This document shows, one piece after another, positions 27,503 through 49,397 of a DNA stretch of 64,000 bases; position 1 is the first letter of the stretch; each line of letters opens with the position of its first letter. The notes under the pieces are model-generated. The model searched no databases. It saw only the letters and a program-made list of their open reading frames with translations, and was not told the origin of the DNA. This DNA comes from a virus. The stretch lies in IMG/VR virus record IMGVR_UViG_3300045988_101835; one strand, given 5' to 3'. The translations under genes were made by a program, and so were the position numbers.

Positions 27503-27535
27503 GTTGAGGTAATCATATACAATTTTATTCTGCCG

Positions 27536-27567
27536 TTTGTAATAGACGTAAAATAATTATAACTTGC
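27536..27567 (+). promoter_or_regulatory. Bacteroides-type promoter inside the element left end
   Basis: TTTG at 27536-27539, a 20-nt spacer, then TAACTTGC at 27560-27567, 4 nt before the tnpB ATG. The same geometry occurs at 37833-37864 and 48168-48199. Confidence 0.4.
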
Positions 27568-27571
27568 AGCC

Positions 27572-28750
27572 ATGAAGAAGACATTCAAATATCGCATCTA
27601 CCCGAACAAAGCCCAGCAGGCTTTGTTACAGGCGACGTTTGGATGCTGCCGCTTCGTTTACAACAAAACGCTTGATATTAGGAAGACGGCTTACGAGACC
27701 GACAAGATGAAGCTTAGTAAGTTCGATTGCATCAATCGGATGACTGCGTTGAAGGATGAGTATACGTGGTTGCGTGCCGTTCCTGCGGTTTGCTTGGTTC
27801 AGGCTGTTGACAACATGGATACAGCCTACCAAAACTTCTTCAAATCTGGTAAAGGTTATCCGAAGTTTAAGTCGAAGCATCGTAGCCGTAAGTCCTGTAA
27901 GTTTATGGTGCCTAAGTGTGTTGTATTGCAAGATATTAGTCGTTTAAAGCTTTCTAAGTTAGGGTTAGTCAAGTACAAGAAAGACCGGGAGTTCGTTGGC
28001 GCTTTGCGTCACATTGTGGTTACACAAGAAAACGATGGTAAGTACTACGCGTCGTGCTTGGTGGAGACGGGCGTTGAAGCACCTAAGCCAAAGCCCGTTG
28101 ATGATAGCACAACGGTCGGCATTGACTTGGGGCTGAAAGACTTTATCGTCACGTCCGACGGGCGCAAGATACCTAACCCGCGCTTTTATGCTACTATTGA
28201 CCGACGCATAGCTAGGTTACAGAAGCATGAAGCACGAAAGACGAAAGGCTCGAAGCGTCGTGCCCGCATTCGCTTAAAGATTAACAAACTTTATATCAAG
28301 AAGCAAAACTTAATTAAGAATTATATTTACCATGCCGTCAAGACGTTACTGCGTGAGAGTCAAACGATAGTAATGGAGAATCTTAATGTTGGCGGCATGG
28401 TTAAGAATCATAGTTTAGCTAAATCCATACAGAACATTTGCTGGGGTGAACTTCGCAGAGTGTTAGAGTATAAGTCTCAATGGCTTGGTCATAACCTTAT
28501 TTTCATAGATCGTTGGGCACCGAGTACGAAGACTTGTAGTTGTTGCGGCTTTAAGAATGATATATTAACACTTTCAGATCGTTCGTGGACATGTCCGGGT
28601 TGTGGTACGCATCACGACAGAGATGTTAACGCTGCCCTCAACATTAAGCGTATGGGTTTAGAAAAGTTATTGCCTACGGTGAGTGGGTTCGACGGACGTG
28701 GAGAGATCGGTTACGATCTCGACGAAGCGTCAATATGTGCAAGTTATTAA
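27572..28750 (+). CDS. tnpB: TnpB (OrfB) RNA-guided nuclease family protein
   Basis: N-terminal 'YRIYPNKAQQALLQATFGCCRFVYN', RuvC-I 'GIDLGLKDF', RuvC-II 'VMENLN', zinc finger 'CSCCG...CPGCG', RuvC-III 'HHDRDVNAALNI'. Confidence 0.9.
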   Translation: MKKTFKYRIYPNKAQQALLQATFGCCRFVYNKTLDIRKTAYETDKMKLSKFDCINRMTALKDEYTWLRAVPAVCLVQAVDNMDTAYQNFFKSGKGYPKFKSKHRSRKSCKFMVPKCVVLQDISRLKLSKLGLVKYKKDREFVGALRHIVVTQENDGKYYASCLVETGVEAPKPKPVDDSTTVGIDLGLKDFIVTSDGRKIPNPRFYATIDRRIARLQKHEARKTKGSKRRARIRLKINKLYIKKQNLIKNYIYHAVKTLLRESQTIVMENLNVGGMVKNHSLAKSIQNICWGELRRVLEYKSQWLGHNLIFIDRWAPSTKTCSCCGFKNDILTLSDRSWTCPGCGTHHDRDVNAALNIKRMGLEKLLPTVSGFDGRGEIGYDLDEASICASY

Positions 28751-28765
28751 TTGTATATAATCACC
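28636..28765 (+). ncRNA. putative omega-RNA (reRNA) scaffold overlapping the tnpB 3' end
   Basis: By analogy with characterised TnpB systems. The conserved hairpin gagatcg-gtta-cgatctc (28703-28720) shows compensatory changes in the other copies. The 5' boundary is a guess. Confidence 0.4.
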
Positions 28766-28781
28766 CTTTGTTTGTAGAATA

Positions 28782-28813
28782 TTTGGATTATTAATTTAAC
28801 TTTACTATCTTTG
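28782..28813 (+). promoter_or_regulatory. Bacteroides-type promoter
   Basis: TTTG at 28782-28785, a 20-nt spacer, then TATCTTTG at 28806-28813. Confidence 0.6.
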
Positions 28814-28856
28814 TGGTGTGGTAATAGTGCCGCGCATAACTAATTTGGATTGTATC

Positions 28857-29192
28857 ATGCCTAAGCGTAAGATTTCCGTCGGCTCTTATGTCTATTTGCC
28901 GCTTCCGGGTATTCAGAGTTGTTCTTTAGGAGTTTGTGCTCGTGTCGTCTTGTTGTACTCCACTCCTTGTGAGGAGTGCGTTGCCGTTGGGGATCGTTAT
29001 TATGATCCTGTTTCGGGTGAGTCGGGCGACCTGTCTTCTCATTCGCATATTGTAGTTCGTCCTGCGAGTTACTTGACGGGATATGGCCTTGAGGATTGCC
29101 AGCAAGTTGTTGCGATCTTTTCGCGGAGCATGATAAGCCCTACGAAGCCGTCTCCGTCTATTGTTCGTTTAGCACGTTATGCAGGAGTCTAG
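28857..29192 (+). CDS. hypothetical early protein
   Basis: First ATG downstream of the promoter. The track start at 28818 falls at or before the expected transcription start. Confidence 0.5.
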   Translation: MPKRKISVGSYVYLPLPGIQSCSLGVCARVVLLYSTPCEECVAVGDRYYDPVSGESGDLSSHSHIVVRPASYLTGYGLEDCQQVVAIFSRSMISPTKPSPSIVRLARYAGV

Positions 29193-29195
29193 GCT

Positions 29196-29630
29196 ATGGA
29201 GTCGAGAGCTACTTTTCTAGATTTTCACAATCTGGTCCGAGCTTATTATGGTCCGTATGTGGATTCGAAGCCGCTGTTGCGTTCGGATGCTGCGTCGGGT
29301 GCTCATTGCTTCGACTTCTTAGCGTGTAGCTTTCTGCCGCATTCTCTGGAGCGTGTTTTGGTTCGTGTGACGGCTATCACTAGACCGTGGGGTTATTCTG
29401 AGGTTTTGTCCGCCTGCTTAGACGCTTATGATATCAATTCTCTACGTGTTTCCTTAGAGTGCGGGAACTATCGTTGTGAGTGGATCTATTCGGATTTAGT
29501 GTCTGGTTCGGTATTAGAGCGTCTGTTCGATGTCTGTGCTATGCTTCCTACGCTTAAGTCTGCTTATGATGTTGTCACGCTGCATCGTCGTCTTAGTTTG
29601 GTTCTGCGGTCTTGGGGTTATACGAAGTAG
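29196..29630 (+). CDS. hypothetical protein
   Basis: 144-aa ORF, tightly packed. Confidence 0.55.
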   Translation: MESRATFLDFHNLVRAYYGPYVDSKPLLRSDAASGAHCFDFLACSFLPHSLERVLVRVTAITRPWGYSEVLSACLDAYDINSLRVSLECGNYRCEWIYSDLVSGSVLERLFDVCAMLPTLKSAYDVVTLHRRLSLVLRSWGYTK

Positions 29631-29638
29631 TCTTTGCT

Positions 29639-30184
29639 ATGGATTCCTATCGCCGCATACCGTTGTCTAAGCCTTTTGAGGGTGCCCGGAGGATTTCTCC
29701 GGAGCTTTACATGTCGGGAGTTGCTTCGGCCTTTCTGGGTTATCAACTTGGTCGCACTAAGAGCGTAGATGACTTTTACCGTATCTTGGAGGATCACTTA
29801 ATTTCGGTCCGCAATGTTTGGCGGTCGCCGGATTATGATGCTAGCCGTGTAGTGTGCTGCTTTGTGAAGTTGGAGTCGCAGGCTATTTCCGTCAACCATC
29901 GTGAGATTATGCGCGTTCTTAGTTCTGCTTTGGGTCTTGAGTACCGGGAGGTCCGTGGTACTACGTCTCGTAATGCTCGCATCTTTGATGTTATGGGTCC
30001 GGACTATTCGGTTTTGGCTTTCTTGCCGCTCTTTAGCTACACGTTGATTTCGTATGATCGTATAACACGTAGGGTCATTAAGAACATGCGTGGGGATCGT
30101 TTTGCGAAGTTTGCATGGCGTGCGGATTTCACTTCGGAGTTTCTCCGCCGCATTCAGGAGATAGTGTTGAATGTTTTAAAGTGA
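29639..30184 (+). CDS. hypothetical protein
   Basis: First ATG after the upstream stop. Confidence 0.55.
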   Translation: MDSYRRIPLSKPFEGARRISPELYMSGVASAFLGYQLGRTKSVDDFYRILEDHLISVRNVWRSPDYDASRVVCCFVKLESQAISVNHREIMRVLSSALGLEYREVRGTTSRNARIFDVMGPDYSVLAFLPLFSYTLISYDRITRRVIKNMRGDRFAKFAWRADFTSEFLRRIQEIVLNVLK

Positions 30185-30196
30185 GTTTTGGGTAAT

Positions 30197-30604
30197 ATGG
30201 ATTCTGCTTTTTTCAGGTCTAATGTCAACTTCTGTGCTGAGTCGCATTTGGATACTGTTAATTATTCACAGGAGTATGCTGATAATAATTTTCGTCTTTT
30301 CGGCAATAAGCTTTCTCTTATTGAGGGTAAGCTTGATGCATGGCGCGCTTGTGGTTTCCGCGATGCACTTGGGGCTTTCAAGGTTCTTCGTATGATTAGA
30401 GCTTTGTGCGGGGACGGGCGCCTTACGAAGCTTGGCTGTAGTGGCGCTTTGCTTACATACGGAGATTATACTATGAGCCTTAATAGGTATGTGTTTTTGC
30501 TTTGCCATAACGACAAGGTTCTTTTTCGGTGGTTTACTTTGGACTATGACTGGATTTACCTGTTGCCGTCATTGTTGGGTTTAGATATTGAGAGTCATGA
30601 ATAA
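30197..30604 (+). CDS. hypothetical protein
   Basis: First ATG in ORF 30188-30604. Confidence 0.5.
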   Translation: MDSAFFRSNVNFCAESHLDTVNYSQEYADNNFRLFGNKLSLIEGKLDAWRACGFRDALGAFKVLRMIRALCGDGRLTKLGCSGALLTYGDYTMSLNRYVFLLCHNDKVLFRWFTLDYDWIYLLPSLLGLDIESHE

Positions 30605-31064
30605 GGAACTGTTGTGTGTATCGGCCATTAGGTTTGCCTGTGGTCCTCGGGGTTCACGCCTTATGGATAGCAGCTTTGCTGCGCAGGTTGTTGACTTGAG
30701 TCTTCGAAGGTTCGGGGCGTCCTTGCGCCCGCTTCGTGAGTTCTGCTTCTACGCTTCGCCTGCTAATATTCCTTTGGCTGCTTACGATCTTAGAGATATT
30801 GCTTATCTGATTTCGGCGTTTCTTTTAGATTATGATATCAAGCCACTGCATAAGGTTTCGTCATTAGATGATACTGCAGATTGGAGTGTTCAGCATGGTG
30901 ACTTGGTGGTTCGTATTTCTACGGATCAGATTCGGTTTTTTGATTTGTCATCTTCGGAGTCTTTCATTCTGGGTGTAGACACAGGCGCTTGGTTGATCTG
31001 GATTCATTTAATTCCTTATATCTTTGGATTAATGGATGGCGCATACGTAGATGATATTGTCTAA
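30597..31064 (+). CDS. hypothetical protein
   Basis: The ATG overlaps the upstream stop region. Confidence 0.5.
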   Translation: MNKELLCVSAIRFACGPRGSRLMDSSFAAQVVDLSLRRFGASLRPLREFCFYASPANIPLAAYDLRDIAYLISAFLLDYDIKPLHKVSSLDDTADWSVQHGDLVVRISTDQIRFFDLSSSESFILGVDTGAWLIWIHLIPYIFGLMDGAYVDDIV

Positions 31065-31083
31065 CTGTTTATGATGATATTCT

Positions 31084-31404
31084 ATGGCTTATCGAGGATA
31101 TAAGTTTGTGCGTACTGAGGGTTCTGGGGCTGAGTTGGTTCCGGTTAAGTATTCCACGGCGATTACGCAGTTGGTTCCGGGTGATCGCTATTTGCTTCAC
31201 GCTCCGGTTCGTGTTTTGAATGCGGGTCAGTGGGTTACGGGTCAGTATGTTGATACGACTTTAGCAGGTATGGCGCGTTTTACGGCGTTGTGTGGCTCGG
31301 CCGATACCATTGCTCGCTTGGTTCCGGATGACGATGGTCTTTTCCCTTATCCGGAGGCGGATTTGCTTAGTAGCAAGACGTTCGTTCCGACATATGGTCT
31401 TTAG
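31084..31404 (+). CDS. hypothetical protein
   Basis: 106-aa ORF followed by a terminator. Confidence 0.55.
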   Translation: MAYRGYKFVRTEGSGAELVPVKYSTAITQLVPGDRYLLHAPVRVLNAGQWVTGQYVDTTLAGMARFTALCGSADTIARLVPDDDGLFPYPEADLLSSKTFVPTYGL

Positions 31405-31414
31405 TGCAGCTTAG

Positions 31415-31444
31415 GACGGAGGTTTATCCTCCGTCTTTTTTTTC
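31415..31444 (+). terminator. rho-independent terminator
   Basis: gacggagg-tttat-cctccgtc followed by T8. Confidence 0.8.
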
Positions 31445-31453
31445 TATTGGTCT

Positions 31454-31491
31454 GGTTTTCCTTCGTGGGTTTTCCTTCGTGGGTTTCCTCC
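31454..31491 (+). repeat. 14-nt direct tandem repeat (2.7 copies) in a pyrimidine-rich spacer
   Basis: ggttttccttcgtg occurs twice (31454-31467 and 31468-31481), followed by a partial ggtttcctcc. Confidence 0.7.
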
Positions 31492-31544
31492 TTTTTCTTT
31501 TCGTCTTTTGCCTGCATCTTCTGGAGGTGTTTGTCCTAGTTTTC

Positions 31545-31570
31545 CGGCCCGGTTTTTCCGGGCCGTTTTT
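31545..31570 (+). terminator. rho-independent terminator
   Basis: cggcccgg-ttttt-ccgggccg followed by T5. Confidence 0.75.
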
Positions 31571-31576
31571 GTTGTT

Positions 31577-31597
31577 GCAATTATATATCCGATAAAT
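31577..31597 (+). promoter_or_regulatory. conserved phage motif (putative phage-specific promoter)
   Basis: gcaattatatatccgataaat, 35 nt upstream of the GTG at 31612. Confidence 0.5.
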
Positions 31598-31611
31598 AAA
31601 AATAGTTCGTT

Positions 31612-32820
31612 GTGTACAGGTCGCAGTTGCTAACATATCTTAGTGCTCTTTTTAGTAGCGGCAATCCGTCGGCGTCTGATTTTCAGAAGTTGATTCAGGG
31701 TTTGGGTAGCGAGTCGGATAGGCCTCATATTGTGTGTGTATCGTCTGCGTCTAACATTCCTGATGATCAGCTTCTGACTTCGACCTATGACATGCCTACA
31801 ACTACTTCTGGTTCGGGTTGTGGTTCTACGGGTGTTTCACCTGCGCCGTCGGGTTGTGGTTGTCCTCCTGCGCCGACGCCGCCTACCCCGCCGCTTCCTA
31901 CGACTCGCAAGGAGAAGGTTATCAATGTTCTGTGCGATTGGTTCCGTGAGGGTTGGCTTCTGGATTGTATTGGCATTTGTACGGGTACTGATGCTGCTCG
32001 CGCCTACTATTGGGTTGTTAGCATGGACTCGGATGCAGGCACCTACGAGATACTGTCTGTCCAGTTTAATAACCCGGGTTTTGGCAAGGGCGGCTTTGCT
32101 TCGGAGAACGCTATCCGCCTTCTGCGCCTTGTTTACAATCGCTCTACGCAGACGGTTGTTTCTACGGATGCCCGTCTGGTTATTACGGAGCTTACGAATG
32201 CCGTCATGTCGGAGGACGTCCGTGAGATTAAGATTGTTTACTCGACGCCGCCTATGCAGGAGGATGGTGTTCTGTATGTCCAGATGTCGCTTCCTAAGCT
32301 TGATAAGCCTGATGTCTCGGTTTCTGCTGTTACTCAGACGTCGTGCGTCCTTAGCTGGCCTAGCATTGCAGGCGCTGCAGGTTATAGGTTTGCGATTGAG
32401 GGCACGGACATTTCGGCCATTGTGTCTTCGCCTTACATGGTCACGAATTTGAAGCCTAGCCGTTCTTATGTTTTCACGGTCACGGCTCTTGGTGATGGTG
32501 TTAAGTCGAGTGACTCGGAGGCATCGAGTGTCAACGTCTTGACTCCTGCAGCAAGCATTCTGTCTGCTCCGGTTCCTGTAGTGTCTAATTTGAGTTCTAC
32601 TTCTGCCGTTGTTTCGTGGTCTGCTGCCCGTGGTGGCGATAGTTACACATACAGGCTTAATAACGGTCCTTTGGTTTCGGAGGTTATGCCTCCTGTTACT
32701 TTGGATGGTTTGACTCCGGGTTTCCGTTACACGTTTGCTGTTAAGGCTATTTCCACGTCGCCTGCAGTTCTGGACTCGGATTGGGGTTCTACTGATTTTG
32801 TCACGGAGAGTGGCGATTGA
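31612..32820 (+). CDS. virion protein with two fibronectin type III-like repeats
   Basis: GTG start; there is no in-frame ATG nearby. The repeats are 'PDVSVSAVTQTSCVLSWPSIAGAAGYRF...' and 'PVPVVSNLSSTSAVVSWSAARGGDSYTYRL...'. A Pro/Gly/Cys-rich linker lies upstream. Confidence 0.65.
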   Translation: MYRSQLLTYLSALFSSGNPSASDFQKLIQGLGSESDRPHIVCVSSASNIPDDQLLTSTYDMPTTTSGSGCGSTGVSPAPSGCGCPPAPTPPTPPLPTTRKEKVINVLCDWFREGWLLDCIGICTGTDAARAYYWVVSMDSDAGTYEILSVQFNNPGFGKGGFASENAIRLLRLVYNRSTQTVVSTDARLVITELTNAVMSEDVREIKIVYSTPPMQEDGVLYVQMSLPKLDKPDVSVSAVTQTSCVLSWPSIAGAAGYRFAIEGTDISAIVSSPYMVTNLKPSRSYVFTVTALGDGVKSSDSEASSVNVLTPAASILSAPVPVVSNLSSTSAVVSWSAARGGDSYTYRLNNGPLVSEVMPPVTLDGLTPGFRYTFAVKAISTSPAVLDSDWGSTDFVTESGD

Positions 32821-32847
32821 TTGTTGATTGGTTTTTGTTGCTGGGTC

Positions 32848-33078
32848 ATGACGCCTTCTGTTGTTCGTTCGGATAATAATGTGTGGGTTTTGCTCACGGC
32901 GTTGAGTGTTGTTTTCAACGCGGAGGAAGCATTGCGCTGTTGGCTTAACGGTCAGATTGTCTGGGAGCGGAAGGGTCCTTATCTGGAGGTTTCTCCGGAT
33001 GTTGTATGGTTTGCGTCGGCTGCGGGGAGTTCCGGCAGTTTTAAGATTACTAGCAATACGGACTGGGTAATTATTTAG
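32848..33078 (+). CDS. small BACON-like domain protein
   Basis: C-terminal 'GSSGSFKITSNTDWVII'. The start is uncertain (TTG at 32821 or ATG at 32848). Confidence 0.45.
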   Translation: MTPSVVRSDNNVWVLLTALSVVFNAEEALRCWLNGQIVWERKGPYLEVSPDVVWFASAAGSSGSFKITSNTDWVII

Positions 33079-33100
33079 TATTCCTTTTTTTTTTTGCATT

Positions 33101-33748
33101 ATGGCAATACCTTCTTGGCTAACGCTATCACAGCTTTCGGGTAATGGTGACGAGAACATTAACGTCACGGGTACTGAGCATACTGGTCGTGTTGTTCGTA
33201 CCTACACCTTGACGGTTACCGCTACGGGTCCTGCGGCTTGTAAGGTGACTACGAATCAGACTCCTACTGCTGAGTTCTGTACTTTTGATTCTAACACCGC
33301 TTCTATTGGTAAGGAGGGCGGTGTTCTTACCATTACGGGTAAGTCTAACTCTTCTAAGCTTACGTTTGCGGTTACGGAGGGCGGTTCTTTGGAGCTTACG
33401 CTTCCGAGCAACTACAAGGCTTCTGGTCTTGACACGGCTAACGGTGTTGTTATTGCGGGTGACCCCGGTGCTGCTGCTGCTTTTAGTTTCTCGATTGAGT
33501 TTACGGTTGATCTGAATACTACTATCGAGTCTAAGACGGCTACGGTTACGGTTACGGATGCGGGCGGTACTTCTGCGGGTGCGGGTCAGTACCATTCTTG
33601 CGTTGTCACTCAGAATGCAGGTGATGCTTACCTGTATGTCAACGATGAGGGCACTACGACGGCTACGATTACCATTCCCGCTGCGGGCGGTTCTGGTAAT
33701 CAGACGCAGTTCTCCGTAATTTCTAATACGGACTGGGTCATATCGTAG
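33101..33748 (+). CDS. BACON-like repeat protein
   Basis: 'LSGNGDENINVTGTEHTGRVVRTYTLTVTA' and C-terminal 'NQTQFSVISNTDWVIS'. Confidence 0.6.
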   Translation: MAIPSWLTLSQLSGNGDENINVTGTEHTGRVVRTYTLTVTATGPAACKVTTNQTPTAEFCTFDSNTASIGKEGGVLTITGKSNSSKLTFAVTEGGSLELTLPSNYKASGLDTANGVVIAGDPGAAAAFSFSIEFTVDLNTTIESKTATVTVTDAGGTSAGAGQYHSCVVTQNAGDAYLYVNDEGTTTATITIPAAGGSGNQTQFSVISNTDWVIS

Positions 33749-33774
33749 TGATTTTCAGACACTTACGCTATCGG

Positions 33775-33805
33775 GTCGGGATTGGTTTTCCAGTCCCGAC
33801 TTTTT
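33775..33805 (+). terminator. rho-independent terminator
   Basis: gtcggga ... tcccgac followed by T5. Confidence 0.65.
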
Positions 33806-33823
33806 ATTTTACTTTTTTTTTTC

Positions 33824-33854
33824 TTTCATTTATAGATTAATCTTTTTATATTTG
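33824..33854 (+). promoter_or_regulatory. Bacteroides-type promoter (imperfect -33)
   Basis: TATATTTG at 33847-33854, with only a 3/4 match (TTTC) at the -33 position. Confidence 0.45.
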
Positions 33855-33875
33855 TGCAAATAAATTCCGTTGGTT

Positions 33876-34097
33876 ATGGTGACTCATAAAGCTCAAAAGA
33901 TTCGTGCAGGTCATTACTTGTACCGTGGTTTCCATGTGTATTCCGTCGGCTATTATGAGCCGGAGGGTTGTGTGTGCTGGGAAGCAGTTGATCATGATGG
34001 GTGTGGCTTCGCTCATTCACACTCTTTACGCGATACGAAGGCTATGATTGATGCCGAGCTTAATTCCCCTCGGTTTTCCCCTTCCCTTCAGCGTTAG
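33876..34097 (+). CDS. hypothetical small protein
   Basis: 73-aa ORF from the first ATG. It sits between a host-type promoter and a phage-motif promoter. Confidence 0.5.
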   Translation: MVTHKAQKIRAGHYLYRGFHVYSVGYYEPEGCVCWEAVDHDGCGFAHSHSLRDTKAMIDAELNSPRFSPSLQR

Positions 34098-34120
34098 ACG
34101 TTGCCTCCGGCGGCATTGAT

Positions 34121-37806: not shown

Positions 37807-39062
37807 GGTAATTATTTACTTTTTCATTTTCATTTGCAATAAATGTAAAATAATTGTAACTTGCAGTCGTGAAGAAGGCATTTAAATATCGCATTTATCC
37901 GAACAAGGCCCAGCAGGCTTTGTTGCAGGCGACGTTTGGGTGCTGTCGCTTCGTGTATAATAAAACGCTAGACATCAGGAAGACGACGTATGAGAGGGAT
38001 AAGACGCAGCTTAGCAAGTTTGACTTAACCAAGAAGATACCGCTGCTTAAAGAAGAGTTTCCGTGGTTGCGCGACGTTCCGGCGGTATGCTTGCCGCAAG
38101 CAGTCGGCGATATGGATGATGCCTATCAGAAGTTCTTTAAGTCCGGTAATGGTTATCCTAAGTTTAAGACGAAGCATCGCAGCCGTAAGTCTTGTCGTTT
38201 TCCGGGCCAGAGTTGTGCGGTATTGCAAGACATTAGTCGTTTAAAGTTTCATAAGTTAGGCTTAGTCAAGTATAAGAAGGATCGTGAGTTCGTCGGTACT
38301 TTACGTCACATTGTGGTTACACAGGAAAGTGACGGTAAGTACTACGCTTCGTGTGTAGTAGAGACGGGTGTCGAAGCACCTAAGCCACAATCCGCAGAAG
38401 CTAGTACGACGGTCGGTATTGACTTAGGACTCAAAGACTTTATCGTTACGTCGGACGGACGCAAGATAGCTAACCCGCGGTTCTACGCTACTATTGACCG
38501 TCGTATAGCTCGGTTGCAGAAGCACGAAGTTAGAAAGACGAAAGGGTCTAAGCGTCGTGCACGCATCCGATTGAAAATTAACAAACTTTATGTTAAGAAA
38601 CGCAACTTAATCAAAAATTATATTTACCATGTTGCCAAGACGTTACTGCGTGAAAGCCAAACGTTAGTAATGGAAAATCTCAATATTGTCGGCATGGTTA
38701 AGAATCATAGTTTAGCTAAATCCATCCAGAATATTTGTTGGGGTGAACTGCGTAGAGTGTTGGAGTACAAGTCTCAATGGCTTGGCCACAATCTCATCCT
38801 CATAGATCGTTGGGCACCGAGTACGAAGACTTGTAGTTGTTGCGGTTTCCACAATTCTATGTTGACGCTTTCAGATCGTTCGTGGGTTTGTCCGGGTTGC
38901 GGTACGCATCACGACAGAGACGTCAATGCTGCGATTAATATTAAGCGTATGGGTTTAGAGTCATTATTGCCTGCGGTGGGCGGGTTTGACGGACGTGGAG
39001 AGGTTGGTTACAACTTCGACGAGGCGTCAATATGTACAGTGTAGAAATTGTATGCATTCACC
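37807..39062 (+). mobile_element. TnpB-only insertion element, copy 2
   Basis: Left end ggtaattatttac... and right end ...aattgtatgcattcacc. Its ends are more decayed than those of copies 1 and 3. Confidence 0.75.
37869..39044 (+). CDS. tnpB: TnpB family protein (GTG start)
   Basis: Full set of motifs as in copy 1: GIDLGLKDF, VMENLN, CSCCG...CPGCG, HHDRDVNAAINI. The start codon is GTG where the other copies have ATG. Confidence 0.85.
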   Translation: MKKAFKYRIYPNKAQQALLQATFGCCRFVYNKTLDIRKTTYERDKTQLSKFDLTKKIPLLKEEFPWLRDVPAVCLPQAVGDMDDAYQKFFKSGNGYPKFKTKHRSRKSCRFPGQSCAVLQDISRLKFHKLGLVKYKKDREFVGTLRHIVVTQESDGKYYASCVVETGVEAPKPQSAEASTTVGIDLGLKDFIVTSDGRKIANPRFYATIDRRIARLQKHEVRKTKGSKRRARIRLKINKLYVKKRNLIKNYIYHVAKTLLRESQTLVMENLNIVGMVKNHSLAKSIQNICWGELRRVLEYKSQWLGHNLILIDRWAPSTKTCSCCGFHNSMLTLSDRSWVCPGCGTHHDRDVNAAINIKRMGLESLLPAVGGFDGRGEVGYNFDEASICTV

Positions 39063-39387
39063 TTGGTTTAGCGCCATTGAGGCCGAGATTGAGCTTTATG
39101 TTGAGGTTGTGGACTTGTCTGAGTCGTTGTCGGAAGTTCGCTGGAGACCTTACGATAGTAAGACGCCGAACGTGACGCAGAGCCGCCGTTATCCTCGGTC
39201 TATTGCTCATTCTATGTATCGTCGTCTTCGTCGTGAGTACATGGCTCATGTTTACTACGACTTTTTGAAAGGTTACTCTAAGACACACTTAGATTCGCAG
39301 TCTAAGTTTTCGCGTTGGTATGTTTCTCATCGCAAGTGGTTCTCGCCACGTTGGGTTCTTGCTAAGTTTTTGCATATTTATATTTGA
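39052..39387 (+). CDS. hypothetical protein whose only upstream in-frame ATG lies inside the element right end
   Basis: The ORF 38986-39387 frame reads through the right end. The ATG at 39052-39054 is part of 'attgtATGcattcacc'. Confidence 0.4.
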   Translation: MHSPWFSAIEAEIELYVEVVDLSESLSEVRWRPYDSKTPNVTQSRRYPRSIAHSMYRRLRREYMAHVYYDFLKGYSKTHLDSQSKFSRWYVSHRKWFSPRWVLAKFLHIYI

Positions 39388-42883: not shown

Positions 42884-42913
42884 GCGTCCGGCTTTGCCGG
42901 GCGTTTTTTTTTT
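42884..42913 (+). terminator. rho-independent terminator
   Basis: GC-rich stem gcgtccggc/gccgggcgt around a ttt loop, followed by about T10. Confidence 0.7.
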
Positions 42914-42930
42914 AATTTATTGACATTTTA

Positions 42931-42962
42931 CTTGCGAGTTTGAATATGATTTTGTAGTTTTG
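42931..42962 (+). promoter_or_regulatory. Bacteroides-type promoter (imperfect -33)
   Basis: CTTG at 42931-42934, a 20-nt spacer, then TAGTTTTG at 42955-42962. Confidence 0.5.
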
Positions 42963-43007
42963 TGACGTTGGTGCTTGAGCGCCAGCAGAAGGAAAAACAC
43001 ACTTAAA

Positions 43008-43829
43008 ATGGATACTAATTTTGTTCGCACGTTTCTTCGTGGTTCTACGGAGGTTGAGCTTATCGGCTCGGGATTATCATCAACAGACATCTGGGTTCAT
43101 TGTTTAGGTCGTCGCGGTGTCGGCAGTTACGACATTACGCTAGAGGACCTTCGTGCGCGCCTTTTCGATCTTGTCCGCGAGAGTGTTCGTATGGACCTGC
43201 ATCGTTTCTGGCCTACGTTCGATGGTGACTGGATGGACTTGGTCCATATGTTCTACTACGGTTATATGACGCCTAAGTGTCGATATAAGGGTAAGAAGTA
43301 CTACTTCGACGGTGACTATATGAAGGCACTTCAGGAGGGCATTCCTTACCTGACGCTTATTGATCGCTATGCCAATAGCACTCATGTAAGCTTTGAGACT
43401 TACGTCCGGGGTTGCGTTAAGAATCGTCTTCTTGACGGCATCCGTGGGGGTGTTAAGGGCTACGACGCTGCGGGCCGCAAAGTATCCGTTGATGAGTCTC
43501 TGGAGGCGTGTGGTGATAGCACGCTTGTTAAGTTCGGGCTGCTGTGCTCGCAGGACGGTTTCCTTGATGATTCCTCGGCGGAGATATGGCATGATCCGCG
43601 CGCTGCTGCTCGGTGTCACGAACAAATGGCCGTTATCCGGGAGCAGGATGCCGCTACGGCGCGTCGGATGCTTGTTTCGTATATTAAGATGCGTTCGTCT
43701 TTAGAGGCCGACATTCGGGCGTTTTTTGACTTTACGTTCGAGGTTCCGGATAGCACGGAGGATTCTCCGGAGTTTCAGGCTTTCGTAGTTTCTAACAGGC
43801 TTGGTCGTTACTTCTCATCAAGTTGCTGA
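43008..43829 (+). CDS. hypothetical early protein
   Basis: First ATG in ORF 42975-43829. No secure motif. Confidence 0.55.
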   Translation: MDTNFVRTFLRGSTEVELIGSGLSSTDIWVHCLGRRGVGSYDITLEDLRARLFDLVRESVRMDLHRFWPTFDGDWMDLVHMFYYGYMTPKCRYKGKKYYFDGDYMKALQEGIPYLTLIDRYANSTHVSFETYVRGCVKNRLLDGIRGGVKGYDAAGRKVSVDESLEACGDSTLVKFGLLCSQDGFLDDSSAEIWHDPRAAARCHEQMAVIREQDAATARRMLVSYIKMRSSLEADIRAFFDFTFEVPDSTEDSPEFQAFVVSNRLGRYFSSSC

Positions 43830-43846
43830 TTTTATATTTTGTGCTT

Positions 43847-43957
43847 ATGAAAAAGCAGGATGATTATCGCAAGTGGTTCGCCTACGGCGGCCAGTTGTTT
43901 CTGGAGATTGTTGTATGCTTTGTGCTGGTGTATGGTCTTCTCCTTCTCTTAAGCTAA
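43847..43957 (+). CDS. possible 36-aa single-pass membrane peptide
   Basis: Hand translation gives MKKQDDYRKWFAYGGQLFLEIVVCFVLVYGLLLLLS. Below the track cutoff. Confidence 0.3.
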   Translation: MKKQDDYRKWFAYGGQLFLEIVVCFVLVYGLLLLLS

Positions 43958-44124
43958 CTTAACACTTTCGGGAGTTGTGATTCGTTGGGTTCCACTACTG
44001 CGTGCCTTGTTGTGACACGTAGGGTCTTTTCTTGTCGGCTTTATCATAGTCGTATGGTTCATTATTGTCATGGGCGCAGTTGTCGTATTTATTTTGCGCG
44101 ATGTTGGAATTTGTCCCCCTTAGA

Positions 44125-44156
44125 TTTGGATTATTAAATTAACTTTTCTATCTTTG
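44125..44156 (+). promoter_or_regulatory. Bacteroides-type promoter
   Basis: TTTG at 44125-44128, a 20-nt spacer, then TATCTTTG at 44149-44156. Confidence 0.6.
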
Positions 44157-44201
44157 TAGTGTAGAAATAGTTCTACAGATAATTTAATATGGATTTGAGC
44201 T

Positions 44202-44579
44202 ATGCGCGTTTTCGAAACATTAACCAAGCTTATTTTATACGCAGTAGGTTTTGCTATTGAGCTTGCAAGTTTTCTTGTGTTCTTGTATGCTTCCATTTTC
44301 ACGGTTTTCTGCGTAACTCGTCCCGGTACTTACTTCAAGGAGCCGTTTCTTTCTATGCCTTATGCTATCTGGGGTGCTATTGGCGGGGCTGTTGTCTACT
44401 TGGTTTTCGTCTTCCTGAATAAGAGCTTCTACGTAAGTTTCATTAAGCAGGTTTCGACTTCTAGTCTTATGATGTTCTTCACCTGTCTTATTCTTCGTTG
44501 GAAGTATGTTATCTTCTGGTGGGTTATGTATACCTTCTTCGTTTACATTGTCTTTGGAGTTGATCCCTATGGCGTATGA
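44202..44579 (+). CDS. multi-pass membrane protein
   Basis: 125 aa with four hydrophobic segments. Confidence 0.55.
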   Translation: MRVFETLTKLILYAVGFAIELASFLVFLYASIFTVFCVTRPGTYFKEPFLSMPYAIWGAIGGAVVYLVFVFLNKSFYVSFIKQVSTSSLMMFFTCLILRWKYVIFWWVMYTFFVYIVFGVDPYGV

Positions 44580-44827
44580 GAATGAGACATCATATGGCTA
44601 TGCACCTTGCGGGGTGCTTGGAGCACTTTCGGCGGCGCCGCATGACGGGTCTTTTTACGGATGATACGGGCCGTCCTTTGTCGGATTCGGAGGCCCGCGA
44701 GTATATTCGTCAGTGTATGCTGAATGGCTGGAATTACGTTCCTTTGTGTCCGTCGTCGGAGTGTCCGGATTTCGATTATATCACGGGTGAGTGTCCGGGT
44801 CATCCATTACCAGATGAGGAGGAGTAG
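44576..44827 (+). CDS. hypothetical small protein
   Basis: ATGA-coupled to the upstream gene. Cys/His-rich. Confidence 0.5.
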   Translation: MRMRHHMAMHLAGCLEHFRRRRMTGLFTDDTGRPLSDSEAREYIRQCMLNGWNYVPLCPSSECPDFDYITGECPGHPLPDEEE

Positions 44828-44829
44828 TT

Positions 44830-45186
44830 ATGGCTTGGTTTCGGTCTATGTTCGAGATGCTTTTCAGTACTTCTGTAGGGTATTCACTTGATCTTCTTGA
44901 CTCGGAGGACTGGTGTATCAACCCTCGGAATATGAATACACCGCGTGCGTCGCTTCCGGCAGAAGGAGCATTGGTGGTGGCTACGTATAGTGTTGTGCGC
45001 GATAACGTTGTAGGTCGTAGGAGCTATTCGCTTATGACCCGCCGAGGTGATCGCTGGTACTCGGATGCCTTTCGTGGTCGCTACTTCGTCCCGGAGTTCA
45101 TGTATGCTTCTTGCTGTGCTGATAGTAGATGCGCAGGCTTTGTTTCATCGTGGGAGTCAATACCGCGTTATATTGATAATGCTTAG
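44830..45186 (+). CDS. hypothetical protein
   Basis: 118-aa ORF. Confidence 0.5.
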   Translation: MAWFRSMFEMLFSTSVGYSLDLLDSEDWCINPRNMNTPRASLPAEGALVVATYSVVRDNVVGRRSYSLMTRRGDRWYSDAFRGRYFVPEFMYASCCADSRCAGFVSSWESIPRYIDNA

Positions 45187-45197
45187 TTTTTGATTAT

Positions 45198-46154
45198 ATG
45201 GGTTTTATTGGGGATGCTATTCAGCAGATTGATAGTGAAGATTTGACTGTAGGTGCTTCGTGGGTTTGCAGATTTTACAATTACCGAAGTAGCGGGACTG
45301 CGTCGGAGCTGGAGCCTTCGTTGTTGTCGTGTTTCAAGGATGAGTCGGATGCGCTTAGGGTTTTCAATAAGGAGATGACTGCGAATGCGAAGGCCATCAA
45401 GGAGGAGGGAGGTTTATTCTTTTTTCGTGGTGCTGATCCGATGCATCCGGCGGTTAATTCATTATCGGGTCAGGCATTATCGTCTTGTCAGGCTATGGGG
45501 GTTCCGGTTAACTTCTGTACGACATATTGGGAGTGGGCTAAGGATTACCCGGGTTACGCTGCCATGCTTGGCATCGACAAGGGCTTAGTGGCATTTGGCG
45601 CTGATATTGGTCGTCCTTTTTATTCGGGCAAGGTATCCTCTCTTGAGGTTGTGACGGAGGGTCTTGCTTCGCTTCATAAGTACAGGTTCAAGACTTGGGC
45701 GTTGTTTACTCCATGCGTTTCCGTGAATTCTGATGATCCGTATGCTTCGGATTACGATGTAGCTAAGTCGGAGGAGGTATTCAAGAGCATTGTTCCTTTT
45801 ATTGACTTTGTTCGGATTTGGCTTACTCCGGTTGCGGTCTTGACGGATGCTGAGTTGCATGGTGTTTCTCAGATTCTCAATAAGATTACTTCTCTGGCCA
45901 AGAAGTATAAGGTCCATGTGATCTTGGATTCTACGGTTCGAGATGTCGTAGGTTTCCCGGATGCTTCCTCACCTTCGGCTCCTAAGTGGTCCAAGTACAA
46001 GTATTTGAATACGGGTCAGTGGCCACGGTTCGAGGTTTCATTTGACGATACCCGCGAGGCGGGCAATATCGAGGCTGCGGTTAAGGAGGCTATGGATGCC
46101 ACGAGCGAGGCCGCTATGCGCCAGCATGAGCGTCGGTCTAAAAAGAATAAGTAA
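45198..46154 (+). CDS. hypothetical protein
   Basis: 318-aa ORF. Confidence 0.6.
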   Translation: MGFIGDAIQQIDSEDLTVGASWVCRFYNYRSSGTASELEPSLLSCFKDESDALRVFNKEMTANAKAIKEEGGLFFFRGADPMHPAVNSLSGQALSSCQAMGVPVNFCTTYWEWAKDYPGYAAMLGIDKGLVAFGADIGRPFYSGKVSSLEVVTEGLASLHKYRFKTWALFTPCVSVNSDDPYASDYDVAKSEEVFKSIVPFIDFVRIWLTPVAVLTDAELHGVSQILNKITSLAKKYKVHVILDSTVRDVVGFPDASSPSAPKWSKYKYLNTGQWPRFEVSFDDTREAGNIEAAVKEAMDATSEAAMRQHERRSKKNK

Positions 46155-46156
46155 CG

Positions 46157-46393
46157 ATGATGCAGAAAATCTGTTTGTTTCTGGCCGTGGTGCTGGGTTT
46201 TACGTTGTTTCTCGGCGGCTTGGGATTAACTGCTGCTCTTATATCGTACTGCACAGAACTTAGCTCTGTTGAGTTCTTAACGGTTGTGGGTCTTGTTGTG
46301 CTCTTTGGAGCGTGCGCAGCTATTGTCTTAGGAGGTCTTTCCATGCTGTTCTCAGCAGTTGCCATTCTTTCATTAAATGGTCGTGAGCGATGA
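46157..46393 (+). CDS. small two-pass membrane protein
   Basis: 78 aa, strongly hydrophobic. Confidence 0.5.
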   Translation: MMQKICLFLAVVLGFTLFLGGLGLTAALISYCTELSSVEFLTVVGLVVLFGACAAIVLGGLSMLFSAVAILSLNGRER

Positions 46394-46689
46394 TTTTGGA
46401 TTGTTACCATACGTCTCTCTTGCCGTTCCCGGCTCACTTATCGATTACACGCACGCAGGTTGCGTCGGATGATCCTCATAGCGACGTTTATTACTTCGTA
46501 AATCCGCATTCTGGGGGTTGCGCAATTAAGTCATCTAATGGCGATGTTATTTCCATTAATGCTACTCATTTAGTGCTTCACAGGTCTACAGGTGAGTGGG
46601 AGCTGTGGTATAAATTAATTTCGTCTAATTCTCGTAGAGGTGCTCCTATGCGTCAGCTTCTGGGGTGTCGGGTCGAGGAAGTCAAGTAG
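46390..46689 (+). CDS. hypothetical protein
   Basis: ATGA-coupled 99-aa ORF. Confidence 0.5.
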   Translation: MILDCYHTSLLPFPAHLSITRTQVASDDPHSDVYYFVNPHSGGCAIKSSNGDVISINATHLVLHRSTGEWELWYKLISSNSRRGAPMRQLLGCRVEEVK

Positions 46690-46699
46690 GATATGCGCG

Positions 46700-46734
46700 C
46701 ATATGTAAAGAAAAGTCGATTTTCTTTACATATG
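46700..46734. promoter_or_regulatory. perfect 15-bp inverted repeat (hairpin or operator)
   Basis: catatgtaaagaaaa (46700-46714) pairs with ttttctttacatatg (46720-46734) around a 5-nt loop. No T-run follows. Confidence 0.6.
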
Positions 46735-46772
46735 TCAAGTGATATAGAAAAATAATTGCAAAATCTTTTCAT

Positions 46773-48119
46773 ATGGTAAAAGCAGATTATGTAAGTTTGT
46801 GGTCCGTAAAGCAGGAGTTCTACCAGCCTCGGCTGCTCAGTAGTCTTTTGACGCCTACGGGTCGAGGCGGTTCGGTTGTGATCCGGGATTACGTTCGGGC
46901 TTTGAAGTGGCTTACGGCTTTGGAGTCTGCGATGCATTCTCTGGGTCATCCTATTACGAAGGGTACTTGCTCTCAGGTAGGCTCACTGCAGGACTTGTGC
47001 TCTATGCTCCATCCGTCGGATAAGTTCCGGCTTGGTATGGACATGTGCCTTTGTGGTACCTTGAGTAGCCTTCCGGATGATCGCCAGACGGAGATTCTGG
47101 AGTCTTCGTCGTGGCTTGCTACGGAGAAGATACGAGGTGTCCGGGCTTTGCTCTTGAGTTACGCGGCACCGGGGCGTGGTTCACGGTTCAGTCTTTACTC
47201 TCGGTTCTTGTCGGACGACTGTGGTCTTATAGATTGGGGTCCTAAGCTTTGGCAGCAGCACAACTTCGGTCAGGGGGTTACGGCGGTGGATGTTGAGATT
47301 TGCTATCCTCACTCTATGGATGACTTCAAGACTTTGTTCGAGGGTGCTGAGAATTTGGCTTCTACTTCTACGGGTGTTGTGGAGTACGTTCTTAGTCTTC
47401 CGGAGAATCAGGCTTTGGGTATCCAGTCTCAGTTTTACGCTAAGTACCAGCGTCATATGTTCTCGCTTATGGTTATTTGTCCTATTTTCTACGAGAAGGT
47501 CAACTACCTCAAGCAGCCCTTGCGTGCGGGGTGGGATGTGTATACGCAGGTCGTTTCTCATCTTCGTTCCGCGGGCTTAAATGCCTTCGAGGTTAACCGC
47601 TGCTTTGGTGGCAAGTTCGAGAAGGTCTCGTTCTTGGACTCTATTCTTAACCGAGGCGGCGAGGGTGTTGTGCTTCATAACGGAGATGCCTTCTACGACA
47701 TTACAGGGTCCCGTGATTCTAATGTCATGGTTAAGATTAAGAACCGTGTCGGCGGCCCTGCTAAGCGGATTATGGACGATACGTTCGACGCTTTCATTAC
47801 GGGCGGTTCGGGCGCCGCGTCTTCTATTCTCCGCCTTGAGCTTAGCATCATCTGTGAGAATGAGGACGGCTACCAGCATCGTCAGGTTCTGGGCTTCCTG
47901 CCTATTAGTGGTGATCTTTCACTGCAGGCTACGATTCTGGATAGTGGTGTTCCACGATTGAATCCTGACTTTATGGATAAGGTCGTTGAGGTTCAGGCCC
48001 GTGCTTTGGATAACAACTTCCATTTGATTGATCCTACTTTGATTCGTCTTCGTCACGACAAGGCCGCTTCGGACTGTGTCTATACGGCTACATATTTACG
48101 GTCCTTGCCGCGGGGTTAA
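46773..48119 (+). CDS. ATP-dependent ligase-like nucleotidyltransferase (DNA or RNA ligase)
   Basis: Motif I-like 'TEKIRGVR', motif III-like 'AVDVEICY', motif IV 'GGEGVVLH', motif V 'VMVKIKN'. Motif I has Arg where KxDG ligases have Asp. Confidence 0.5.
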   Translation: MVKADYVSLWSVKQEFYQPRLLSSLLTPTGRGGSVVIRDYVRALKWLTALESAMHSLGHPITKGTCSQVGSLQDLCSMLHPSDKFRLGMDMCLCGTLSSLPDDRQTEILESSSWLATEKIRGVRALLLSYAAPGRGSRFSLYSRFLSDDCGLIDWGPKLWQQHNFGQGVTAVDVEICYPHSMDDFKTLFEGAENLASTSTGVVEYVLSLPENQALGIQSQFYAKYQRHMFSLMVICPIFYEKVNYLKQPLRAGWDVYTQVVSHLRSAGLNAFEVNRCFGGKFEKVSFLDSILNRGGEGVVLHNGDAFYDITGSRDSNVMVKIKNRVGGPAKRIMDDTFDAFITGGSGAASSILRLELSIICENEDGYQHRQVLGFLPISGDLSLQATILDSGVPRLNPDFMDKVVEVQARALDNNFHLIDPTLIRLRHDKAASDCVYTATYLRSLPRG

Positions 48120-48122
48120 GGG

Positions 48123-48139
48123 GCAGTTATATATCCCAA
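48123..48139 (+). promoter_or_regulatory. variant of the conserved phage motif, abutting the element left end
   Basis: gcagttatatatcccaa, immediately followed by the copy-3 left end at 48140. Confidence 0.4.
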
Positions 48140-49397
48140 GGTGATTATATGCAACTTTATATCATCGTTTGCAGTAAATGTAAAATAATTGTAATTTTCA
48201 GACATGAAGAAAGCATTCAAATATCGCATCTACCCGAACAAGGCTCAGCGGGCTTTGTTTCAGGCGACGTTTGGATGTTGCCGTTTCGTTTACAACAAAA
48301 CGCTTGATATCAGAAAGACAGCTTATGCGATGGATAAGACGCAGCTTAGCGAGTTTGATCTCATCAAGAAAATAAAGCCGCTTAAAGAAGAGTTCCCGTG
48401 GCTGCGTGACGTTCCAGCGGTTTGCTTACCTCAAGCAGTTGGTGATATGAATGATGCTTTCCGTGATTTCTTTAAGTCGGGTAAGGGTTACCCTAAGTTC
48501 AAGACGAAGCATCGTAGTCGGAAGTCTTGTCGTTTTCCCGGCCAGAGTTGTGCAGTGTTGCAAGACATTAGTCGCTTAAAGCTTCCCAAGCTTGGTTTAG
48601 TTAAGTACAAGAAAGATCGTGAGTTCATTGGCACTTTACGGCATATAGTGATTACGCAAGAAAGTAATGGCAAGTATTATGCTTCGTGCTTGGTTGATAC
48701 GGGCGTCGAAGCACCGAATCCGAAGCCAGTAGAAGCTAGTACGACGGTCGGCATTGACTTGGGGCTTAAAGACTTTATCGTCACGTCGGATGGGTGTAAG
48801 ATGCCCAATCCACGTTTTTATGTTACTATCGACCACTCCATCGCCCGCTTGCAGAAGCACGAAGCGCGGAAGATGAAAGGATCGAAGCGTCGTGCGCGCA
48901 TTCGGTTAAAGATTAACAAACTTTACAGTAAGAAACGGAATTTAATCAAGAATTATATTTATCATGTCGTCAAGACATTACTGCGCGAAAGCCAAACGCT
49001 AGTAATGGAGAACCTTAACATTGTTGGCATGGTAAAGAATCATAGTTTAGCTAAATCCATCCAGAATGTTTGCTGGGGTGAGCTTCGCAGAGTACTGGAG
49101 TACAAGTCGCAGTGGTTGGGTCACAACTTAATCTTCATAGATAGGTGGGCGCCTAGTACGAAGACTTGCAGCCATTGCGGGTTCCATAATTCTACGTTAA
49201 CGCTTTCAGATCGTTCATGGACATGTCCGGGGTGTGGTACACATCACGACCGGGACATCAACGCCGCGATTAACATTAAACGTATGGGTTTAGAGACATT
49301 ACTGCCCGCGGTGAGCGGGTTCGACGGGCGTGGAGAGGTCGGTTACGGTCTCGACGAAGCGTCAATATGTGCAAGTTATTAACTGCATGTAATCACC
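48140..49397 (+). mobile_element. TnpB-only insertion element, copy 3
   Basis: Ends ggtgattatatgcaact and aactgcatgtaatcacc are 14/17 inverted repeats. The element is flanked on both sides by tcccaa (48134-48139 and 49398-49403). Confidence 0.8.
48204..49382 (+). CDS. tnpB: TnpB family protein
   Basis: GIDLGLKDF, VMENLN, CSHCG...CPGCG, HHDRDINAAINI. Confidence 0.9.
   Translation: MKKAFKYRIYPNKAQRALFQATFGCCRFVYNKTLDIRKTAYAMDKTQLSEFDLIKKIKPLKEEFPWLRDVPAVCLPQAVGDMNDAFRDFFKSGKGYPKFKTKHRSRKSCRFPGQSCAVLQDISRLKLPKLGLVKYKKDREFIGTLRHIVITQESNGKYYASCLVDTGVEAPNPKPVEASTTVGIDLGLKDFIVTSDGCKMPNPRFYVTIDHSIARLQKHEARKMKGSKRRARIRLKINKLYSKKRNLIKNYIYHVVKTLLRESQTLVMENLNIVGMVKNHSLAKSIQNVCWGELRRVLEYKSQWLGHNLIFIDRWAPSTKTCSHCGFHNSTLTLSDRSWTCPGCGTHHDRDINAAINIKRMGLETLLPAVSGFDGRGEVGYGLDEASICASY

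Follow-up and report, generated by a model that had tools for sequence, protein, structure and literature searches.

TnpB-encoding elements in the phage segment

We analysed a 64,000-nucleotide stretch of viral DNA (IMG/VR virus record IMGVR_UViG_3300045988_101835), hereafter the window, and identified three elements (c1, c2 and c3) that each place a gene for the RNA-guided nuclease TnpB between terminal inverted repeats. All three lie on the plus strand. Element c1 (27508–28765, 1258 bp) was delimited by repeat finding, open reading frames (ORFs), Pfam matches and alignment of ends, and is composed of a left inverted repeat (27508–27524), tnpB (27572–28750) and a right inverted repeat (28749–28765), with a structured 3′ RNA region predicted at about 28591–28765. 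Element c2 (37807–39062, 1256 bp) contains a tnpB gene at 37869–39044 that begins with GTG, and element c3 (48140–49397, 1258 bp) contains tnpB at 48204–49382. The encoded proteins are 392, 391 and 392 amino acids long, respectively. An earlier note on this DNA had described three full-length copies with TnpB proteins of 391–392 residues at these positions; ORF listing and repeat finding recovered all of them, together with a fourth, divergent tnpB at 62896 and a solo right end that the note had missed.

The c1–c3 proteins contain the HTH_OrfB_IS605, OrfB_IS605 (RuvC) and Cas12f1-like_TNB domains (Pfam, E-values of 1e-18 to 1e-24), and all three TnpB domains exceed the cut-offs in c1, c2, c3 and c5. 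Residues 2–364 of the family protein align with the ISDra2 TnpB structures 8BF8 and 8EXA (E = 8e-62), and a full-length alignment was also obtained with 9YYG, a TnpB-like nuclease designed by artificial intelligence. Consistent with the earlier description, the RuvC D/E/D residues and the zinc finger are kept in all three proteins: D185 (in GIDLG), E269 (MENLN), D351 (HDRD) and the CxxC motifs at 322 and 341. The identity of roughly four-fifths or more that had been estimated by eye corresponds to computed pairwise values of 83.1–87.9% for the proteins and 80.6–82.1% for the nucleotide sequences. Between pairs of copies, synonymous divergence (dS) is 0.88–1.18 and nonsynonymous divergence (dN) 0.07–0.10, giving dN/dS ratios of 0.06–0.10 (Nei-Gojobori). 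The nuclease gene in c1–c3 is thus under strong purifying selection, as had been proposed, and because the copies compared reside in one phage lineage, these ratios require selection during residence in the phage.

The third codon positions of the TnpB genes are occupied by A in 16.5–16.8% and by T in 32–33% of cases, versus 3.6–6.7% A (11.3% in one gene) and 39–49% T in 11 phage genes. The A-rich third positions reported previously are therefore A-rich relative to phage genes only. Codon usage in the TnpB genes is partly ameliorated toward that of the phage, which argues for long residence. Assembly duplication, which the earlier note had raised against its own interpretation, was ruled out for c1–c3 because the copies are about 19% different and their flanks are unique. 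An IStron or group I intron was ruled out as well, with Rfam showing only tRNAs in the window.

Terminal inverted repeats and target-site duplications

The family is bounded by terminal inverted repeats of about 23 bp (GGTGATTATATACAATTTTACAC; 17–26 bp across copies) that start with GGTGATTAT. In an alignment of the ends of 14 close copies, the left end reads GGTGATTATATACAATT and the right end is its reverse complement. Element c1 is flanked by a degenerate target duplication (TTTGTTGA and CTTTGTTTG), and c3 by TCCCAA at 48134–48139 and again at 49398–49403. Element c2 carries mutations at each of its two inverted repeats (left GGTAATTATTTAC.., right ..GTATGCATTCACC). The clearest view of an insertion comes from positions 26984–26991, where the window contains the empty target site TGCATGAG in the context GGTA-TGCATGAG-TTTGTAG: a 94%-identical phage, IMGVR_UViG_3300023490_000005, carries a family element at that site with TGCATGAG on both sides. 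Scanning IMG/VR and metagenomes with the 17-mer end revealed many pairs of ends separated by 1258–1349 bp and some separated by about 330 bp. We identified 12 distinct perfect 8-bp duplications (those of L248 and L365, described below, included), each with a chance probability of 1.5e-5. These duplications are exact at 8 bp and variable in sequence, with a bias toward T at position 1 (9 of 12) and A at position 8 (8 of 12). Together, the empty/filled pair and the 12 perfect duplications establish an 8-bp target-site duplication.

An 8-bp duplication generated by a staggered cut is the signature of a DDE transposase. IS200/IS605 and IS607 elements, on the other hand, have neither terminal inverted repeats nor target duplications (PMC13565253). 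The c1–c3 family differs from the IS200/IS605 type in both respects, as it has terminal inverted repeats rather than subterminal hairpins, and duplicates its target rather than inserting without duplication 3′ of a fixed 4–5-nt motif. The earlier note had implicitly read these TnpB-only units as IS200/IS605-type elements, a reading that their ends and duplications contradict.

The same ends are found in an element with a transposase. L248, a Mollicutes-like metagenome contig of 2466 bp (32% GC, TGA read as Trp) with the duplication AGAAATAA, encodes a full DDE_Tnp_IS1595 domain (E = 1.5e-46), and NCBI gives an 81%-identical relative the name “IS1595 family transposase ISNwi1”. Two homologous loci, which likewise encode DDE_Tnp_IS1595, have a Bacteroidota chromosomal context: L365, adjoining a Por_Secre_tail gene, is bounded by GGCAATGATATATAATTTTACAC with TTAAATAA as its duplication, whereas L367, within a SusE/amylase locus, has perfect 21-bp ends and no intact duplication. 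Measured with the right end of the miniature element described below, the family ends match L248 at 25 of 26 positions and L365 at 21 of 26, and GGTGATTATATACAATTTTACAC is found in L248 and the miniature element as well as in every TnpB-bearing class. The ISNwi1-group ends in ISfinder, which we take to be “ggnnatTAT” with 8-bp repeats, served as a lead and not as evidence.

In the type of terminal inverted repeat and the 8-bp duplication, the elements correspond to the ISNwi1 group of IS1595; they encode no transposase. A Pfam sweep identified no DDE transposase in cis among the 61 window ORFs. When 2.7 Mb of fetched loci, mostly phage contigs, were searched by tblastn (genetic codes 11 and 4) and by motif scan, an IS1595 transposase was found only in L248, the set covering about two thirds of the related phage genomes. 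With no transposase found within c1–c3, elsewhere in the window or in the phage loci related to it, we regard the three as non-autonomous derivatives and not as autonomous members. Judged from their ends and duplications, c1–c3 are IS1595/ISNwi1-type shells and not IS200/IS605-type elements, and they would be moved by a transposase supplied from elsewhere.

Diversity of cargo and the predicted 3′ RNA

The same ends enclose at least five TnpB lineages and a miniature element of about 330 bp. The lineages comprise the c1–c3 type, a protein of 399 amino acids (59% identical), proteins of 373–404 amino acids, one of 418 amino acids (about 22% identical) and one of 431 amino acids. Miniature elements of 327–330 bp with the same inverted repeats occur in L191 (3043–3372), L222, L181 and L282, and reside in 150-kb gut phage contigs; those of L191 and L222 have the perfect 8-bp duplication TATACATA on both sides. 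In their 3′ part they are similar to the right end of the 431-residue TnpB class, and they may represent solo guide-RNA elements. The combination of constant ends and diverging cargo points to an external constraint, that is, a shared transposase. TnpB of a Bacteroides “plasmid” (pBFO17_1) was considered as a family member and rejected: it lacks such inverted repeats and belongs to an ordinary IS605-type copy.

The last 175 nt of 17 distinct copies can be drawn into a common fold in which 97% of cells are paired. This alignment contains 13 double-change cells versus 5.7 ± 2.1 in shuffles (0/500), and all slid controls collapse. One helix of the fold pairs the inner right inverted repeat with upstream sequence, and a candidate pseudoknot would join the loop GGUGA to the terminal UCACC. 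Changes in the terminal UCACC are confined to C-to-U opposite G, whereas the last base of the GGUGA loop varies and an A-to-C change in L007 breaks the pair. Only six pairs of the fold covary, in a region that is also coding. With moderate confidence, we predict a structured omegaRNA overlapping the tnpB 3′ end and extending to the right inverted repeat. Transposon-end nucleotides belong to the guide-RNA scaffold in Fanzor1 and IS607 (PMC10711439), and the right inverted repeat here likewise falls within the predicted RNA scaffold.

Distribution among related phages

Three IMG/VR contigs of 72–88 kb are about 94% identical to the window. Elements c1 and c2 are missing from the related phages L001/L002 without a footprint, and c3 is present there. 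The search for empty sites that the earlier note had suggested was thus productive, with the c1 and c2 sites empty in L001 and the c2 site also in L002. Other relatives have family copies where the window has an empty site, and several show perfect duplications, which we take as signs of fairly recent transposition. Paralogues are all 75–86% identical except for one pair at 89%, and copies at different sites, within or between genomes, never exceed 89.4%, in agreement with the view that there was no recent copy-paste within the genome. Co-orientation with phage transcription, also reported earlier, applies to the window and does not extend to the family, since opposite-strand copies occur in L009/L014, L013 and L087.

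At the c2 site the orthologues in three phages are 99.6–99.8% identical, whereas the backbones differ by about 8%. The tract of near-identity consists of the element and about 150 nt of right flank (99.6% identical, in an approximately 92%-identical backbone) and ends near the element. Such near-identity fits a recent recombinational, homing-like spread of c2. The c3 orthologue carried by L006/L011 shows 98% identity.

TnpB proteins of 80% identity or more were confined to contigs of this phage group, apart from one “Muribaculaceae” metagenome-assembled genome (MAG) among the 185,579 species genomes searched; two contigs of that MAG, of 88 kb and 31 kb, can be aligned to this phage. The element family is seen so far only in phage or phage-like contigs. 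The 88-kb contig of that MAG looks like a mis-binned phage genome.

Some further copies are worth recording. The human-gut contig L341, which is 100% identical to the first 302 nt of the window, opens with another family copy's right end, located about 9.2 kb upstream of window position 1. In L084 (CANQWS010000032.1, 3900–4000), from a rabbit-gut “Muribaculaceae” MAG, a c2 orthologue has a truncated left end joined to sequence that in other phages is inverted and located beyond window position 62394; this junction reflects a rearrangement or, alternatively, chimeric assembly around a repeated element. In L008, a family TnpB element lies just upstream of a Ser-ACT tRNA gene. Within the window, the right ends of the solo end and of c1–c3 (8216, 28765, 39062 and 49397) are separated by 20549, 10297 and 10335 nt, and the evenness of the c1–c3 spacing has P = 0.0018 for three random sites. 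We rejected a regular spacing of about 10.3 kb as meaningful, as it is not kept in relatives: neither the upstream family copy nor the IS605 element described below falls into the pattern, and L001/L002 lack c1 and c2. The even spacing is probably due to chance.

Association with phage genes and a promoter-like motif

In line with the earlier note, which had placed each element just after a gene end or terminator, c1 begins 11 nt past an intrinsic terminator (27474–27496) and c2 begins 5 nt past a stop codon. The accompanying statement that no phage gene is disrupted does not hold for c2. The phage gene downstream of it (39052–39387, plus strand) has its start codon inside the c2 right end, and its start region, which reads MNTYWFSAIEAE.. 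where the site is empty, reads MHSPWFSAIEAE.. here. In the c2 allele the gene has lost its first codons, and with them the native start; three substitutions in the c2 right inverted repeat, which turn TATAAT into TGCATT, create an in-frame ATG at 39052, and the protein starts with MHSPWF.. instead of MNTYWF... Because the right end provides the start codon of the next gene, the changes in the c2 ends, previously described as decay, cannot be put down to neutral decay.

The motif AATTATATATCC occurs on the plus strand at 16413, 16915, 31579, 34123, 48125, 49888 and 55399. We counted 14 matches versus 5.0 ± 2.2 expected, with all exact matches on the coding strand, and according to the ORF table most copies are located about 7–65 nt (several of them 7–35 nt) upstream of an ORF start. 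The motif probably serves as a phage promoter. There is a resemblance between AATTATATATCC and the right inverted repeat, and several insertions in the phage group lie in or beside the motif, including c3, immediately to the left of which is the copy at 48125–48136. The solo right end (8121–8216, plus strand) consists of the last approximately 96 nt of the 3′ RNA region and the inverted repeat AATTGTATATACTCACC, with no tnpB and no left end. It is situated between an N6/N4 DNA methylase gene of atypical composition (6604–8103) and a gene starting at 8234, and occupies the place where L312 has the promoter-like motif before the latter gene.

Proposed persistence of the elements and competing explanations

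The account that we favour, and consider reasonably probable, is that c1–c3 are non-autonomous IS1595-type transposons with a TnpB-RNA cargo, inserted rarely in trans and kept and spread by TnpB-promoted recombination. An ISNwi1-like transposase, most likely from a Bacteroidota host, would make the rare insertions. After insertion, the element RNA would read into the duplicated target and the right flank, and each copy would thereby hold a site-specific guide. TnpB would then cut co-infecting genomes without the element, and recombination would copy the element in. With homing of this kind, each lineage would stay bound to its site, selection on the nuclease would persist despite decayed ends such as those of c2, and near-identical orthologues in diverged backbones would be accounted for. 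The homing drive envisaged in the earlier note gains circumstantial support from the presence or absence of elements among phages about 94% identical and from the c2 identity tract.

Several observations weigh against this account. Mobilisation in trans is something we infer, because no suitable transposase was found in any phage contig. Since excision by a DDE enzyme already leaves a double-strand break, what such an element would gain from TnpB is not evident, an argument made in PMC13565253. The predicted RNA has moderate covariation support, drawn from a region that also encodes protein. The left flanks of the empty sites (AGGTA, GGGT, TATA and CTTAC) yielded no consensus for a target-adjacent motif. 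The identity tract at c3 does not coincide with the element, and at the c1 site the elements of two phages are just 85.8% identical, variants that fit independent insertion or replacement better than simple homing. Finally, the phage backbones are mosaic, with other 99–100% tracts nearby, and given this general mosaicism the c2 tract is not specific proof of homing.

The best-surviving alternative, which we nevertheless think unlikely, is that the copies are no longer mobile, TnpB having been recruited by the phage to cut competitor or host DNA or for regulation, and the ends having been recruited as promoters or start codons. Strong purifying selection on old paralogues (dS about 1) with no young copies would suit such recruitment, as would the intact TnpB of c2 between decayed inverted repeats and the start codon that its right end supplies to the next gene. 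The likeness of the right inverted repeat to AATTATATATCC, the solo end where relatives have the motif, and codon usage partly ameliorated toward the phage point the same way. Yet the copies are dispensable, given the absence of c1 and c2 from L001/L002 and the other sites filled in relatives, and the perfect duplications in several relatives indicate fairly recent transposition. The guide region, moreover, would correspond to local flank and not to sequence shared with competitors, and some family copies are oriented against phage transcription.

We give still less credence to passive persistence, in which TnpB would be selected elsewhere, in a host-cycling pool, and the phage copies would be dead ends spread by ordinary recombination. 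The highly mosaic backbone, the two element variants at the c1 site and the failure to deduce a target-adjacent motif from empty sites all count in favour of this explanation. Against it, no copy of at least 80% identity was found outside the phage group in the 185,579 species genomes apart from the one phage-aligning MAG; dN/dS ratios of 0.06–0.10 between resident copies of the same lineage need selection in phages, and the partial codon amelioration argues for long residence. That the copies are ordinary IS200/IS605 TnpB-only (IS1341-type) elements, moved in single-stranded form by a Y1 TnpA such as that at 62458–62865, is very improbable: although the TnpB is a close ISDra2-type homologue, a Y1 transposase is encoded in the same genome and TnpB-only IS200/IS605 derivatives are common (PMC13565253), this is contradicted by the terminal inverted repeats and the duplications, including the exact 8-bp one at the empty/filled site pair, by the different build of the window's own IS605 (a left-end hairpin, insertion after TTTTATAA and a TnpB only 40–42% identical), and by the presence of the same inverted repeats around IS1595 transposase genes.

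The favoured account of trans-inserted, TnpB-maintained transposons can be extended to a broader hypothesis, which we put forward tentatively and hold to be possible rather than probable. One IS1595/ISNwi1 shell in gut phages would have repeatedly captured unrelated TnpB-guide-RNA modules with the right inverted repeat in the scaffold, each copy becoming, after a rare insertion by the transposase, a site-specific RNA-guided homing element that passes between co-infecting phages. Such a shell would parallel in phages, and might help to model the origin of, the arrangement of eukaryotes and their viruses in which Fanzor resides in a cut-and-paste transposon.

Comparison with known systems

TnpB is the ancestor of Cas12, and its biology is known almost wholly from IS200/IS605 and IS607 elements, in which scarless excision explains the use of a guide-RNA nuclease to the transposon. 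In the present case the nuclease is kept by selection in a cut-and-paste-type shell, in a virus and with the transposase absent. Two activities would thereby be separated: rare insertion by a borrowed enzyme, and an everyday persistence that depends on TnpB or the phage.

Compared with ISDra2 and the “restorative homing” of IS200/IS605 elements, TnpB is homologous over its whole length, with the RuvC and zinc-finger residues intact and a predicted RNA overlapping the 3′ end; the elements differ in transposition chemistry, with inverted repeats and duplications where those elements have hairpin ends and are excised without a scar, and in that their target-adjacent motif cannot be the one that the transposase targets. 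With the ISNwi1 group of IS1595, some members of which carry passenger genes, they share the GGTGATTAT start, the 8-bp duplications and ends nearly as in L248, L365 and L367, but have no transposase gene and a cargo of only TnpB and RNA. Merlin elements are reputed to be the eukaryotic relatives of IS1595.

Prokaryotic TnpB has been described before in association with DDE transposases and inverted repeats, and this includes solo TnpBs whose ends match (PMC10691335, PMC13565253); ISL2, IS630 and IS1031 are listed among the associated families (PMC13565253). The present elements resemble these DDE-associated branches (Altae-Tran et al, 2023; PMC10691335) in carrying TnpB within an inverted-repeat transposon with its 3′ end near the transposon end, and in that solo TnpBs have the same ends as transposase-bearing relatives. 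They differ in their IS1595/ISNwi1 shell, which is named in neither PMC10691335 nor PMC13565253, in that no element pairing TnpB with a transposase was found here and the family occurs in one phage group only, and in encoding what appears to be a TnpB of the usual ISDra2-like kind and not a member of a derived branch. Literature searches for TnpB with IS1595 or ISNwi1 returned nothing relevant, and no phage-restricted family of this kind was found in them.

A viral parallel is provided by the non-autonomous Fanzor1-only transposons with terminal inverted repeats and target duplications that occur in eukaryotic viruses such as Spodoptera frugiperda ascovirus 1a (PMC10711439). In both cases a lone gene for an RNA-guided nuclease lies between inverted repeats with short duplications, several copies occupy a viral genome, the transposase is absent or unknown, and an inverted repeat is predicted in the guide-RNA scaffold. 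The elements described here differ in encoding a prokaryotic TnpB of about 392 amino acids, in their bacteriophage host and in belonging to the IS1595 transposon family. They also recall T4-like Seg/Mob homing endonuclease genes, being intergenic between conserved genes, present or absent in close relatives and, at c2, at the centre of an identity tract; unlike in those systems, recognition is predicted to be RNA-guided and re-set at each new insertion site.

The family thus offers a tractable prokaryotic system in which to study the function of Fanzor-like arrangements, natural series of alleles with and without the element suited to tests of RNA-guided homing between phages, and compact ISDra2-like nucleases with natural guides. 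It also cautions that “TnpB-only” elements should not be presumed to be IS605 derivatives.

The separate IS605 element and the phage context

The window also contains a canonical IS605 element (62395–64000, plus strand, running off the window) composed of a left-end hairpin (CCCCTAAATCTTTAGTTTAGGGG), a Y1 tnpA and a tnpB, and inserted after ..TTTTATAA. Its tnpA (62458–62865, minus strand) encodes 135 amino acids with a Y1_Tnp domain (Pfam, E = 4.6e-36), and its tnpB extends from 62896 past the window end, the product being 40–42% identical to the c1–c3 TnpBs. This element is missing from four related phages, and its codon usage (C 31% and T 22% at third positions) is unlike that of the phage, which suggests a recent arrival.

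The window is a segment of a gut phage genome coded on one strand, with GC skew positive and AT skew strongly negative throughout. By megablast, 24 kb of it had no match among GenBank phages, and PHROGs gave mostly no matches for 10 flanking proteins. A tail-fibre-like protein of 1347 amino acids matches crAss-like and Bacteroides phages at 30–40% identity, and the window further encodes BACON domains, a DnaB-like helicase, a SNF2 helicase, a holin and a DNA methylase. DNA polymerase A is divided between two ORFs, one with an intein splicing domain (21824–23815) and one with a LAGLIDADG domain (23819–26743), indicating that this replication gene has also been invaded by selfish elements.

The phage genes (e.g., 11–2314, 16993–20655 and 49923–53966) are nearly devoid of A at third positions (3.6–6.7% in 10 of the 11), and their third-position bias, with T at 39–49%, is unusually extreme. 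A tRNA cluster at 10742–12358 comprises Leu-TAA, Leu-CAA, Ser-ACT and Ser-AGA. A at the tRNA wobble position is rare in bacteria; two of these four tRNAs have it and would read T-ending codons, in line with the codon bias of the phage.

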